Source of the DNA: an uncultured Methanosarcinales archaeon
GTDB lineage: Archaea > Nanobdellota > Nanobdellia > Woesearchaeales > GW2011-AR9
Direction of reading: 5' to 3'
Assembly: GCA_964373955.1 (NCBI GenBank)
Contig: CAYJXA010000002.1
Span: 5,113-69,112, forward strand
Length of the DNA: 64,000 nucleotides
Below the pieces are notes generated by a model. It saw nothing but the letters and a program-made list of their open reading frames with translations. It was not told the DNA's origin and made no database searches. Within the stretch, counting starts at the first letter, position 1; the number at the start of each line of letters is the position of its first letter. The translations under genes and the position numbers were made by a program. Below are positions 1,081 through 56,513 of the stretch, in pieces.

Positions 1081-1188
1081 AACCCCACAAAACTAGGCTT
1101 TGTTTATAAAGCTTTCTGGAAACACTCCTCAAAAGTAGTTACTTTAGCAACAAATAGTTTAAAAGCAAGAGTTCTTTGTTGATATCCG

Positions 1189-1317
1189 ATGCTCACTTAC
1201 TGCCCTGAATGCAAGAAGCCTTTACACGAAGGCCAGCATAAGTATGCTGATGGAATGTTCTTAGTGCACTACTGCAAAAGCTGCGGATTCAGAAAAGAAA
1301 CGCCGATGAAGGAATGA
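1189..1317 (+). CDS. small zinc-ribbon protein (42 aa)
   Basis: Own translation: MLTYCPECKKPLHEGQHKYADGMFLVHYCKSCGFRKETPMKE. Two CxxC pairs. Below the ORF-track size cutoff. Confidence 0.5.
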   Translation: MLTYCPECKKPLHEGQHKYADGMFLVHYCKSCGFRKETPMKE

Positions 1318-1740
1318 TTACATAATATTAGTAAAGACCGGGGTTGATTTTGCTGCTTTATAGGTTATCATTGTGCCTACAGGAATTTGAGAAGGAGTAG
1401 TTACATGTGGATTCCAATGTTGTAATTGAGCATAAACTCCCTGAAGTTCTTTAGACCTATCGAAGCAAATCCGATCCCACCCCGGTTCTTCTCGGCATTC
1501 TACTCCATCATAAACAGTAAGTACTCTTTGACCAACTAATCTTTCACGTACTAATCTACGAGCAATCGAAGCTAAGGTATCCCCTTCTTCCGTTCTGAGA
1601 GTATAAGTTGTTACTTCTGTAAGATATCCTTGGGTAGGAAAGATCATATTTTGCCGTCTTTCTACAACATCAAATGCAGACGCAGAACTACTCAATCCCA
1701 AACTCAATGCTACAGCTGCAGGCAAATATTTCCAATTCAT
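1318..1740 (-). CDS. secreted protein with LysM-like segment
   Basis: N-terminal signal-like MNWKYLPAAVALSLGLSSSASA. GDTLASIARRL...IPVGTMITY resembles a LysM domain with an insertion. Confidence 0.5.
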   Translation of the reverse strand: MNWKYLPAAVALSLGLSSSASAFDVVERRQNMIFPTQGYLTEVTTYTLRTEEGDTLASIARRLVRERLVGQRVLTVYDGVECREEPGWDRICFDRSKELQGVYAQLQHWNPHVTTPSQIPVGTMITYKAAKSTPVFTNIM

Positions 1741-34695: not shown

Positions 34696-35643
34696 ATGAC
34701 CTACGTTGAGACTATTAAAAGAGGAAACAAAGAGTATTACTATCTCACTAAGAATCTTAGAGTGGGGGTTAATAATTGGAAAAAGATTAGGGTATACATT
34801 GGTGATAAGAAGCCGACAAAATCAGGCATAAAAAAATATGCTGAGGAAATTGAGAAAAAGATAGAGCAAGAGGGCTTGACAAGACCTGAATATTCTTATC
34901 TTTCTGATGAAGATTCTGAAACGCTCCAAGATCTTAAAGAAAGCTTTAAAGGATGGTTAAAACAGACACCTGAAAGTTTAAAGAAAAAACTCTATGATGA
35001 TTTTGTGATTCGATTTACGTATCATTCCAACGCTATTGAGGGAAATAGGCTTACGTTACGTCAAACTGCTCTAATTCTTAAAGATAAAGTCATTCCCTCT
35101 GGAGTTAGGGCTTCTGATTATCACGAGGCTGTCAACGGGAAGGAGTGTTTAGATTATTTGAAAGAATATGCCGGGGAATTAAACAATCGCTTGCTGGAAA
35201 AAGTGAATGGAATTTTAACTAAAAATACAGGAGTTGTTTATGGGGGAAGAATTCGCTTTTTTGATGTTCAAATTGAAGGTTCTAAACACGTTCCTCCACC
35301 AAATGAAGAAGTGAAAAAGCATTTGTTAAATATGTACAAATGGTACAGTGCAAATAAACATAAATTGCATCCGTTTGAATTGGCTACTCTCATTCATGCA
35401 AGATTAACCTGGATTCATCCGTTTGAGGATGGAAATGGAAGGACTTCCCGGACAATTATGAACTGGATTTTAATGAAGAATGGTTATCCTATGTTCTTTA
35501 TCCCATTTGAAAAGCGGGAAGATTATTATATGACTTTGGAAGAAGCGGATAAAGAGAACTTTAAAGAGTATGTTGCTCGTATGCTTCGGCTGATTATTGA
35601 CCAAGTGAGAAGTTACGGGCACAAAGAGAAGAAAGAAAAGTAG
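34696..35643 (+). CDS. Fic family protein (AMPylase/Doc-like)
   Basis: Canonical Fic motif HPFEDGNGRTSR. Confidence 0.9.
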   Translation: MTYVETIKRGNKEYYYLTKNLRVGVNNWKKIRVYIGDKKPTKSGIKKYAEEIEKKIEQEGLTRPEYSYLSDEDSETLQDLKESFKGWLKQTPESLKKKLYDDFVIRFTYHSNAIEGNRLTLRQTALILKDKVIPSGVRASDYHEAVNGKECLDYLKEYAGELNNRLLEKVNGILTKNTGVVYGGRIRFFDVQIEGSKHVPPPNEEVKKHLLNMYKWYSANKHKLHPFELATLIHARLTWIHPFEDGNGRTSRTIMNWILMKNGYPMFFIPFEKREDYYMTLEEADKENFKEYVARMLRLIIDQVRSYGHKEKKEK

Positions 35644-35662
35644 TGTATGGGCACAAAATTAG

Positions 35663-36085
35663 TCAGGGCGTTATTAAGTAATCAAGCGGATTTCCATACT
35701 GTTTACCTAATTCTTCATAATATTTTCTCCATTCAGGATCAAATTGAAAATGAAGTTCAACTGGTTTTTCTTTTCTCATAGCAATGTTTGCTTCTTGCAA
35801 CGTACCATGGGATATCCCAAAAATCTAAAATCTATCAGGTATCTCAACTGTGCGAAAACAAAATTCCATTGCTTTTTCTCTTCCAATTGCTGGATTACCT
35901 TCAAATCGTTTATATGAGAAAGCTTGAAATGGATGAAAAGGAGCAAGGCCGCGCTCAGTTACATAGTCCATAATTTCTTCAATCTTATCAACAAGGCGTG
36001 AAGGTGTCGCACAATAAATTAATTCTGTCATCCTGTCGGCATATACGAAAGTTCTTATTAAAAATTGTTGTATCATAAACGTCAA
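35663..36085 (-). pseudogene. hypothetical gene interrupted by one in-frame TAG
   Basis: The ORF-track protein 35825..36085 ends ...EIPDRF at TAG 35825-35827. The same frame continues IFGISHGTLQEANIAMRKEKPVELHFQFDPEWRKYYEELGKQYGNPLDYLITP to TGA 35663-35665. Confidence 0.5.
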
Positions 36086-36099
36086 GTCTGCGTTTTGGT

Positions 36100-43623: not shown

Positions 43624-44472
43624 ATGAACATCACTGAACTCATAACCAAAACTGGGCTGCGACAGGGCCTGAGCAGGAATACCCTCAAAACATACTGTTA
43701 TTGCGTGGAAAGATTTTTTCGAATTTGCCGCAAAAATCCCTATGCACTCCGTAAGCAGGACCTTCTGGAGTATATGGACAAACTCATTGAACATAATGCC
43801 CCCGGAAATACTGTAAATGTGCAAATCAATGCATTAAAATTCTTTTACGAACAAGTATTGCATCGCCGACTTACAATTAATCTTCCCATCCAGAAAGTTC
43901 CAAAACGGTTGCCTTATTTTCTGCAGAAAGAACAAGTAATGCTCATGTTGCATCATATTGACAATCCCAAGCACCAGTTGATGATTGCATTATTATATGG
44001 CACTGGCATGCGGGTAAGCGAATTAACTCATCTGAGAGTGCAAGATTTTGTATTCTCTTCCAATTATGGCTGGGTAAGGCAGGGTAAAGGAAAGAAAGAC
44101 CGTTTGTTTATTATTCCTGAGAAATTAAAAGAAAAATTGCAGGAGTATATTATCAGCAACAATTTATCTGCGGAAGATTGGCTCTTCCTTGGTCGGGAGA
44201 ATAATCATTATTCCGATCAGAGTGTGCGTGAGATTCTCAAAAATGCAAAGAAAAAAGCCCGCTTGCAGCAACATGTCTACCCCCATATGCTCCGGCATTC
44301 CTTTGCTACTCACTTCATAGAGAATGGGAACTCCGTGCTTGAGCTTCAGCCCTTGCTGGGGCACAGTAAAATTGAAACAACAATGGTCTATTTGCACTGC
44401 GCCGCACCAAAATTATTGAATTTGAAAAGCCCCCTAGATTCCCTCCCCGAAACCACTCCACAATTCTTATAA
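43624..44472 (+). CDS. tyrosine recombinase, IntI/XerD-like (no IntI-specific insertion evident)
   Basis: [12 protein letters not shown] (Arg I), [10 protein letters not shown] (His-x-x-Arg), [14 protein letters not shown] (catalytic Tyr) and the C-terminal LKSPLDSL tail. Sits 42 nt downstream of the tRNA gene. Confidence 0.85.
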   Translation: [282 protein letters not shown]

Positions 44473-47432: not shown

Positions 47433-47533
47433 AGCGGGGTAGGGAAGCTAGGAGTACCCGATGGGCTCATACCATTAGGATAAATCTAGTGCAAGAAACC
47501 CATAGATCGGTGGTTCAAATCCACCCCCCGCTA
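47433..47533 (+). tRNA. initiator tRNA-Met(CAU) with a canonical 37/38 intron (26 nt)
   Basis: AGCGGGG UA GGGA AGCUAGGAGU ACCC G AUGGG CUCAUA [47472-47497] A CCCAU AGAUC GGUGG UUCAAAU CCACC CCCCGCU A. A1:U72 and the GGG/CCC anticodon stem are archaeal initiator hallmarks. Confidence 0.85.
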
Positions 47534-47608
47534 TTCTTACTATTTGCGAAGCCTGGGGTTGATAAGGGGCGAAGCCACTTATGTGAGAATCCACCCCCCG
47601 CTATTCTT
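47518..47608 (+). repeat. 21-nt exact direct repeat of the initiator-tRNA 3' end
   Basis: AATCCACCCCCCGCTATTCTT occurs at 47518-47538 (T-loop through discriminator plus 5 nt of trailer) and again at 47588-47608. Confidence 0.9.
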
Positions 47609-47966
47609 TTCCTTTAAATCCTTCTAATGGATTAGTATGAATTCCCTTTACTTTCTCTAGAGGATACTTTTTTCTGTTCTTCTCGATTTTTTCTTCGATC
47701 GCTGTAAAGATATCTATGTTAGTCTTGTACGAAAGAATGATGAGGTACATCATAATATCTGCAATCTCTTCTTCTACTTTTTTCTTCTTGAAAGGGTCAG
47801 AGTGAATAGTAAATAATTCTTTTTCACTCAACCAACGGTAACATTCAGCTAATTCTCCCACTTCACTCACCAAGGCAATGAGCAAATCTTTAGGATTATG
47901 ATATTTATCCCAATCTCTCTCAAGATTAAATTGCTTGATTTTTTCTTTTAGGTCATTTAGTTCCAT
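47601..47966 (-). CDS. MazG-like nucleotide pyrophosphohydrolase (DCTPP1-type)
   Basis: RDWDKYHNPKDLLIALVSEVGELAECYRW and EEEIADIMMYL (the EExxE/D metal motifs). Confidence 0.8.
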   Translation of the reverse strand: MELNDLKEKIKQFNLERDWDKYHNPKDLLIALVSEVGELAECYRWLSEKELFTIHSDPFKKKKVEEEIADIMMYLIILSYKTNIDIFTAIEEKIEKNRKKYPLEKVKGIHTNPLEGFKGKE

Positions 47967-56306: not shown

Positions 56307-56450
56307 GGGCCTGTAGTCAAACGGCTACGATACATCGTTCGCAACGATGAGGTCCGGGTTCGACACAGATCTCCCAGATCTGGTAGGGGGATTCGCGGTC
56401 ACTGCGTTCCCGCTCATACATTTGGGAATACGAAAATCCCGGCAGGTCCA
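56307..56450 (+). tRNA. tRNA-Ala(CGC) with a T-loop intron (about 72 nt)
   Basis: GGGCCUG UA GUCA AACGGCUA CGAU A CAUCG UUCGCAA CGAUG AGGU CCGGG UUCGA [56364-56435] AU CCCGG CAGGUCC A. The G3:U70 identity pair is present. The intron holds the hairpin CAGATCT-CCC-AGATCTG. Confidence 0.8.
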
Positions 56451-56513
56451 TAAACGAAGTGCATGGATCCTGACGGCTCAAAGGGCGCACCCTTTGTTTG
56501 CCGGCAGGTCCAT
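56439..56513 (+). repeat. 13-nt exact direct repeat of the tRNA-Ala 3' end
   Basis: CCGGCAGGTCCAT occurs at 56439-56451 and again at 56501-56513. The hairpin CAAAGGG-CGCA-CCCTTTG (56479-56496) lies between the copies, and a T6 run follows the second copy. Confidence 0.85.

Follow-up and report, generated by a model that had tools for sequence, protein, structure and literature searches.

A short module shared with putative T-loop introns lies at the duplicated 3' end of an initiator tRNA gene in a DPANN archaeon

The 64,000-nt stretch analysed here (the window; contig CAYJXA010000002.1, positions 5,113 to 69,112, forward strand; G+C content about 40%) comes from an uncultured DPANN archaeon and carries an initiator tRNA-Met gene whose 3' end is present twice. 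The gene, complete with the first copy of its 3' end, occupies 47433-47533 on the plus strand and matches the Rfam model RF00005 over its full length (1-71; 48.4 bits). Because it has a CAT anticodon, an A1:U72 pair, three G:C pairs in the anticodon stem (GGG/CCC) and a canonical 26-nt intron (47472-47497), we identify it, from these sequence features, as an archaeal initiator tRNA. The gene call was taken from Rfam in place of ARAGORN, which misses the tRNA in default mode and, in intron mode, detects it mis-typed as Ser. Body and first copy fold as a full cloverleaf, so the gene is intact without the second. The repeat, AATCCACCCCCCGCTATTCTT, is 21 nt long and occurs exactly at 47518-47538 (copy 1, R1) and 47588-47608 (copy 2, R2), both on the plus strand; no third copy was found in the window with up to 3 mismatches allowed, and the number of matches expected by chance is 0 (100 shuffles). 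It corresponds to tRNA nt 58-73 plus 5 nt of trailer, that is, T-loop nt 58-60 (AAT), the T-stem 3' strand (CCACC), the acceptor 3' strand (CCCCGCT), the discriminator A and the trailer TTCTT. Between the copies lies a 49-nt spacer, S (47539-47587, plus strand), which no Rfam family matches and within which GCGAAGCC occurs twice. Copy 2 overlaps the end of a convergent gene for a MazG-like nucleotide pyrophosphohydrolase (47601-47966, minus strand; Pfam PF12643, E = 4.6e-13), whose TAG stop codon (47601-47603) coincides with tRNA nt 71-73 of the copy. An earlier interpretation made from the letters alone (the sequence-only reading) had described the exact repeat, its anatomy, the overlap with the stop codon and the paired spacer motif, and all of these agree with the sequence.

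The spacer belongs to a conserved module family that appears to be mobile. Its 28-nt core, GGGGTTGATAAGGGGCGAAGCCACTTAT, lies at 47555-47582 and contains the hairpin ATAAG-G-GGC-GAA-GCC-A-CTTAT (47562-47582). An exact search for this core in JGI/ENA metagenome contigs returned 13 matches on 12 contigs, always at tRNA genes, and a relaxed search added diverged copies. When 15 module copies were aligned, GGGGTTGATAAGGGG and CTTAT were invariant and the hairpin between them varied with compensation (GGC-GAA-GCC, GGG-AAG-CCC, GGC-ACC-GCC); the window copy is a shortened variant without the second hairpin. CTTATGTGAG is the module's own end, and the TGAG in front of copy 2 thus belongs to the module's right end. 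A literature search for the core gave unrelated primer matches only. Readings of the core as a C/D box, a K-turn, a promoter or a dif-like site were dropped by eye, their defining boxes being absent.

The module occurs in two arrangements. In the first (class I) it lies antisense inside the T-loop, with no duplication of tRNA sequence. There are 10 such inserts in nine distinct tRNA genes, three of these genes on contig L028 and one each on L026, L031, L032, L034, L036 and L037 (the tRNA-Thr gene on L033 is the same gene as one of those on L028). The archaeal bulge-helix-bulge (BHB) motif reads 5'-h, H (4 nt), bulge NN↓N, and then H' (4 nt), bulge NN↓N, h'-3', the arrow marking the cut. All 10 inserts fit this geometry, with an h of 5 bp and an H of 4 bp, and would be cut at 59/60. 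The 4-nt partner within the intron covaries with nt 54-57 of the host T-loop (TTCG with CGAA in 5/5, TTCA with TGAA in 5/5). After removal in silico ARAGORN finds a tRNA in eight of the 10 cases, called Thr, Asp, Lys, Gly, Val and others, and most of these tRNAs also have a canonical intron. As judged from their sequences, the class I inserts are real T-loop introns of one recently spread family, and a near-identical intron in different tRNA species is a mark of mobile tRNA-intron families. Their length is 49-54 nt except on L037, where a 173-nt T-loop intron (1139-1320, plus strand) consists of three tandem module copies with the linker AAGAAACTTCGTATGRAAG; here the module also multiplies inside an intron.

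In the second arrangement (class II: the initiator locus of the window, L027, L029, L030, L035 and L047-L049) the module stands in the sense orientation of the tRNA, and the order is a complete tRNA, a T-rich trailer, the module and then the tRNA 3' part once more. Reverse-complemented, the class II module corresponds to a whole class I intron from splice site to splice site (TTTTCAGTTT...CTTAT). The copy begins in the variable arm in L029, L030 and unit A of L027, at T-loop nt 58 in the window and at tRNA-Leu, and at the end of the T-stem in L035, and it ends 1-10 nt into the trailer. The junction CTTATG-TGAG-AAT of the window recurs identically on tRNA-Leu. The window copy thus does not lie inside a tRNA as its intron: it follows a complete gene and is inverted with respect to the introns, and whereas a tRNA intron interrupts its gene and requires splicing, the initiator gene is already complete with body and R1. 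These arrangements do not support, in the form given, the proposal of the sequence-only reading that 3'-end duplications are a route by which T-loop introns arise, since 9/9 genes with a module-bearing T-loop intron have the opposite orientation and no remnant of a 3' exon at the intron start, and no intron with a decayed copy 1 was seen among them.

Unit number varies at one class II locus. The tRNA-Leu(GAG) locus is represented in four independent assemblies, L047, L049, L048 and L027, with 1, 1, 2 and 3 module-plus-repeat units, respectively, and small differences between units. The L027/L047 lineage has a further degenerate module and repeat 1.1 kb downstream, beyond three small genes without a Pfam match, and the flank behind it has as its orthologue the sequence that immediately follows copy 2 in L030. 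The same three genes were found elsewhere without module or tRNA, and they may be cargo or may simply have been bracketed. This three-gene cassette (L027 742-1775, minus strand; also in L047-L053) encodes proteins of 60, 67 and 214 aa that have no Pfam match, its neighbours vary between genomes, and module-plus-repeat copies stand on both sides of it in one lineage. An H-G...C pattern in the 214-aa protein recalls caspase-fold peptidases, and no IMG/VR contig was found for the L027 cassette protein. L035 400-625 (plus strand) holds a multi-intron tRNA missed by both Rfam and ARAGORN, followed by the module and by a 19-nt copy of the acceptor 3' strand with 10 nt of trailer, T5 included.

Four public metagenome runs from two studies (X1-X4) contain the window region, and we inspected their k=31 unitigs. 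In the four runs copy 2 (to 47608) runs straight into ACTATTTGC..., the start of the spacer, and copy 1 (from 47518) is preceded by TTATGTGAG, the last bases of the spacer. X3 and X4 have a single cyclic unitig of 100 nt, that is 70 + k-1 (70 + 30), corresponding to a 70-bp unit. The depth of the S unitig was 31-35 in X1 against 7-9 for the entry and exit unitigs, 10.8 against 3.5-5.1 in X2 (where the loop-back unitig had 9.6), 11.8 against 3.8-6.2 in X3 and 33.1 against 4-6.8 in X4, overall 2-6 times the flanks; among the contigs of these runs none skips the 70 nt. Depth is equally low over the flanking protein-coding DNA and over the tRNA body, so that X1-X4 are DNA libraries and an RNA circle does not explain the raised depth. 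Given the unitig topology and this depth, the true structure is probably an array of tandem units, (R-S)n-R, in which n is about 2-6 and changes from sample to sample, and which assembly collapsed to n = 1. The varying unit number at tRNA-Leu independently supports a dynamic array at the window locus, and the cyclic 70-bp unitig together with the 1-3 units at tRNA-Leu gives the head-to-tail identical units of variable number that characterize a minisatellite. The idea that the MazG-like gene is strain-variable cargo was rejected: a zero depth over 47611-47930 in X3 and X4 reflects contig fragmentation at 2-7x coverage, with no loose ends.

Our preferred reading, held with moderate confidence, is that a small non-coding module, mobile and related to T-loop introns, left its footprint at the locus when it inserted at the 3' end of the initiator tRNA gene and duplicated its last 16 nt with 5 nt of flank, and that probably about 2-6 R+S units are present in the population. 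Normal tRNA would be made by 3' processing after R1, and the downstream units would be dispensable. Each downstream repeat is preceded by TGAG, and in a read-through transcript GGTGG-TTCA is predicted to pair with TGAG...CCACC to form a BHB, beside which the module hairpin would stack as the h' helix. The archaeal splicing endonuclease could then cut AA↓T twice, yielding the same mature tRNA and a 70-nt circle, in whose junction ...CUUAUGUGAGAA would be joined to UCCACCCCCCGCUAUUCUUACUA... Since such splicing would make the insertion harmless, the insertion might be tolerated, and the number of units would drift by slippage or by unequal recombination between the 21-bp repeats.

The motif scan used for the class I introns, together with constrained folding, places the 5' side of the putative BHB in the T-stem 5' strand GGTGG and T-loop nt 54-57, TTCA (47509-47517, plus strand). 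The predicted central helix pairs TTCA (47514-47517) with TGAG (47584-47587) over 4 bp, one of them G.U; the bulges would be the AAT of copy 1 (47518-47520, bulge A) and the AAT of copy 2 (47588-47590, bulge B); and the outer helix would join GGTGG (47509-47513) to CCACC (47591-47595), a pairing that is automatic at copy 2 because R2 equals R1. The two cuts would remove exactly 70 nt (47520-47589, plus strand), equal to one tandem unit and one predicted RNA circle, and regenerate the same tRNA. A BHB fold across both junctions, for which the sequence-only reading had suggested looking, is therefore present in silico as GGTGG-TTCA-AA↓T ... TGAG-AA↓T-CCACC. The hairpin at 47562-47582 ends 1 nt before H, with one strand contiguous, and its other side is 41 nt from bulge A; in true class I introns the module hairpin abuts the other bulge, in a mirror arrangement. 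The folding energies computed with ViennaRNA are -51.8 kcal/mol (BHB conformer), -52.8 (R1 cloverleaf) and -54.4 (unconstrained fold), and these values suggest that all conformers would be accessible. Splicing of the body to copy 2 is, on this folding model, possible.

How the duplication was made is suggested by the trailer of the repeat. MazG homologues (77-83% identity) share the same C-terminus, ...EGFKGKE, and the closest of them ends in the same residues with AAAGAATAA and has no tRNA nearby. The TTCTT of the repeat is the antisense of the conserved last MazG codons (K-E), the tRNA and the MazG-like gene adjoin and overlap by 2 nt, and the last 5 nt of that gene together with its stop codon are reproduced in copy 1. 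Because TTCTT represents ancestral MazG codons, this comparison favours a duplication made locally, in the manner of a target duplication, rather than an attP imported from outside, although any tRNA trailer is T-rich. The L035 repeat, with 10 nt of trailer among its 19 nt, and the 13-nt repeat of the tRNA-Ala gene of the window, described below, point the same way. By synteny, any tRNA and S were absent at all nine loci of four close MazG homologues, which have no conserved neighbours. An Lhr-type helicase gene upstream has its nearest relatives in metagenome-assembled genomes of Woesearchaeota and Nanoarchaeota (57-92% identity over the matched segment, 25 loci), which places the window in a DPANN archaeon, and at 0/25 of these loci did the initiator tRNA or MazG gene lie beside it; no orthologous locus was found through Lhr or MazG synteny.

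Several observations weigh against the preferred reading. There are no visible terminal inverted repeats at the ends of S, and the repeat lengths across loci (12-13, 18, 19, 21 and ~40 nt) fit no single known transposase; the module thus shows neither the terminal inverted repeats nor the fixed-length target duplication of miniature inverted-repeat transposable elements (MITEs) and other cut-and-paste elements, and we found no autonomous partner. The two acceptor positions at which copy 2 deviates in L030 favour import over local duplication at that locus. A run of T5-T9 stands between copy 1 and the module in most sister loci, and because these T-runs precede the module the downstream copies there are, as judged from sequence, probably not co-transcribed. 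The TGAG:TTCA pairing has a chance of about 1/64 with G.U allowed and could be coincidence, this chance being further multiplied by that of a duplication starting exactly at nt 58; TGAG also precedes a repeat that begins in the variable arm (GTGCCTACACAGG...), and since it is the module's end and stands before that repeat too, it would not have been shaped at the window locus. No RNA run was matched that contains the stretch, and the array is called from the topology and depth of k=31 unitigs rather than from spanning reads.

Among the competing explanations the one that survives best, though we consider it unlikely, is that the downstream copies are functional alternative 3' exons: R1 would regularly be read through, the body would be joined by BHB splicing to a downstream R, and the array would be under selection, for example as a spare 3' end or a source of the 70-nt circular RNA. 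The perfect h-B-H-B geometry with the module hairpin as h' and the near-equal energies of the two conformers are as this explanation predicts, and only a weak T-tract, TTCTTACTATTT, follows R1, against TTCTTTTCCTTT after the last R. The genome, moreover, already has 59/60 introns to splice. One is in the tRNA-Ala(CGC) gene (56307-56513 region, plus strand), with a 72-nt T-loop intron at 56365-56436. The last 13 nt of this gene, CCGGCAGGTCCAT, are duplicated (56439-56451 and 56501-56513, plus strand) around an unrelated 49-nt hairpin-bearing (AAAGGGCGCACCCTTT) spacer of which no other copy was found in the sequences searched, and its only oligo-T, T6, follows copy 2, as would suit use of the second exon. 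The other is a minus-strand tRNA (4715-4522), below the Rfam gathering threshold, with a 90-nt 59/60 intron and a canonical one. Neither intron is related in sequence to the module, and because of these two genes we infer that the host splicing endonuclease handles the 59/60 site. Against selected alternative exons, however, R1 is the first to be transcribed and already makes the tRNA complete, strong terminators stand ahead of S at sister loci, the copies at tRNA-Ala, L035, L029 and L030 start outside the T-loop and give no BHB, and no RNA run matches the stretch. The suggestion of a spare 3' exon, as made from the letters alone, therefore keeps its BHB geometry and gains a module that is a true 59/60 intron elsewhere, but loses force from the completeness of the gene with copy 1, the oligo-T before the module at most sisters and the origin of TGAG in the module.

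Rather unlikely, too, is a classical integration scar, in which recombination within the T-loop of the initiator gene brought in a virus or plasmid that had a tyrosine integrase and was then almost entirely deleted, leaving attL - 49 nt - attR, with S as a conserved element terminus next to attR. Williams is said to have described in 2002 the identity block of tRNA-targeting integrases. A direct repeat from the T-loop to the 3' end plus 5 nt is typical of that block (PMC3293823, PMC9897764), and related initiator tRNA genes without S occur in the same samples: contigs with an at least 90% identical 3' part diverge at 47533-47538 into other T-rich trailers, although these are other organisms and not the same locus. 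The L027/L047 lineage, in which the array and a further S-R' copy enclose the 1.1-kb three-gene segment that the orthologous L030 site lacks, could also be read as an element between its att sites, and a XerA-like tyrosine recombinase is encoded 3 kb upstream of the window locus. Yet there is no open reading frame (ORF) or integrase between the copies, in a spacer of only 49 nt; no IMG/VR contig has R or the S core (0 matches, in the IMG/VR collection only), so that an attP-bearing form is lacking in that collection; the near-identical tandem units of 49-125 bp would not be expected from independent decay; the same core sits inside T-loops without duplication; the 1.1-kb cassette occurs elsewhere without S or tRNA, and R' differs from R at three T-stem positions; and the recombinase scores as a housekeeping XerA. 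The att scar put forward by the sequence-only reading thus holds for the anatomy of the repeat and for the related initiator genes without the insert, and fails in that nothing integrase-like lies between the copies, no viral contig in IMG/VR has repeat or spacer, the spacer is a conserved mobile module and the MazG-derived 5 nt suggest local duplication.

A bolder form of the mobile-module reading, to which we give little credence, is that the module is a mobile BHB intron with two insertion outcomes, inverted in T-loops, where it would be rescued by splicing, and at terminators, where it would be rescued by 3'-end duplication, the excised 70-nt circle or intron RNA being an intermediate copied back to DNA. 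If true, this would be the first mechanistic snapshot of archaeal tRNA intron gain, and the arrays would be rolling-circle products. Still more doubtful, taken as an explanation in its own right, is an RNA-mediated origin, in which excised intron RNA served as template for DNA made at a T-rich nick in the tRNA terminator and rolling-circle copying of the circle gave the arrays. Such a process would yield a tRNA, a T-run, a reverse-complemented intron and a target duplication of variable length, and the downstream module is indeed the reverse complement of a complete intron and abuts the oligo-T trailer; this strand is likewise preceded by ATT, the T-loop antisense, in the T-loop introns; the repeats vary in length and end in or near a T-run; and the 70-nt unit equals the predicted circle. 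On the other hand, no reverse transcriptase was identified, the S of the window has no A-rich end, the right junction includes 4-9 unexplained filler nt, and its exact position at nt 58 is not predicted. A chance repeat, a simple slippage duplication or an assembly artefact is barely credible: short tandem duplications do arise by slippage and the window shows only 1.3 units, but no matches are expected by chance, the structure is found in four runs of two studies, the spacer core is exact in 12 unrelated contigs and always at tRNA genes, and a plain tandem duplication of R+S would end in S, not R.

The mobile-module reading can be set beside several known systems. The 59/60 T-loop BHB introns of multi-intron tRNAs are best known from Thermoproteales (PMC4033280, PMC4090602). 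Like these, the module introns have two 3-nt bulges, a 4-bp helix and the T-stem as outer helix, and copy 2 of the window has the same geometry, with cutting predicted to restore a normal T-loop. Unlike them, the initiator gene is uninterrupted, the first 19 nt of its would-be intron are a full second 3' exon and trailer, the module is inverted, and the host is a DPANN (Woesearchaeota-like) archaeon. The families of tRNA intron 'transposition' of Fujishima et al. 2010, as summarised in two reviews in which their mechanism is stated to be unknown (PMC4033280, PMC4090602), likewise have a near-identical intron in many tRNA species, implying recent spread; as far as those summaries go, our family differs in lineage, sequence and a single insertion position, and in having a second mode of insertion, downstream of the gene, in which the 3' end is duplicated and tandem arrays form. 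Split and permuted tRNA genes share with the splicing predicted for the initiator locus a BHB-guided joining of tRNA pieces separated in DNA and circular RNA by-products (PMC3218864, PMC3978253), whereas here the main gene is complete and copy 2 is redundant, in cis and comprises only 16 nt of tRNA.

Duplications made by integrases at tRNA genes, such as the 44-bp att of SSV1 and those of the pNOB8 type (PMC3293823, PMC9897764), differ from the initiator locus, which has 49 nt and no genes between its repeats, tandem units and flank-specific nucleotides in the repeat, and for which no attP-bearing element was found. Another comparison is with the model for tRNA-Thr of Caldiarchaeum subterraneum, in which an intron is gained through a mobile element, with tRNA fragments as direct repeats and heterogeneity in the population (PMC3293823). 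Both cases have a mobile insert at a tRNA gene, a tRNA fragment as direct repeat and a link to intron gain, but the Caldiarchaeum insert is 1.8 kb, bears a recombinase and involves a 5' fragment, and that of the window is a 49-nt non-coding module with a 3' fragment (PMC3293823). The alternation of 21-nt repeats with 49-nt spacers superficially resembles clustered regularly interspaced short palindromic repeats (CRISPR), although the locus is not a CRISPR array, because its spacers do not differ from one another and what is repeated is the end of a tRNA.

According to reviews, no mechanism is known for the spread of archaeal BHB introns among tRNA genes, and these reviews ask for 'snapshots' of insertion (PMC4033280, PMC4090602). 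In our literature search we found no account of a single module whose two orientations correspond to an intron and to an array-forming insert that duplicates the 3' end, nor of such a family in DPANN archaea. Among closely related uncultured DPANN archaea we here find one highly conserved 28-nt module in two states, as a candidate spliceable T-loop intron and as a 3'-end-duplicating tandem insert that varies between samples, which joins two previously separate ideas, att-like duplication at tRNA genes and intron gain. The locus may therefore show how archaeal tRNA introns spread. Such loci also defeat standard tRNA finders and collapse in short-read assemblies.

Two other parts of the window deserve mention. 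The tRNA-Arg(TCT) gene (43405-43582, plus strand) contains two insertions, one of 103 nt in the anticodon region and one of 11 nt ahead of the T-arm. The sequence-only reading had placed T-loop introns in both tRNA-Ala and tRNA-Arg; the first stands, and in tRNA-Arg the T-arm is uninterrupted. No second copy of the tRNA-Arg 3' end was found in the window. The gene for the XerA-like tyrosine recombinase (43624-44472, plus strand; 282 aa; NCBIfam NF040815, 213.8 bits against a cut-off of 220) lies 42 nt 3' of tRNA-Arg on the same strand. Finally, a stretch of low G+C content (34696-42115; 30-34% against about 41%), with a Fic-domain gene, three ORFs without a Pfam match and a 1010-aa Type ISP-like restriction-modification fusion, could be an island of foreign DNA.

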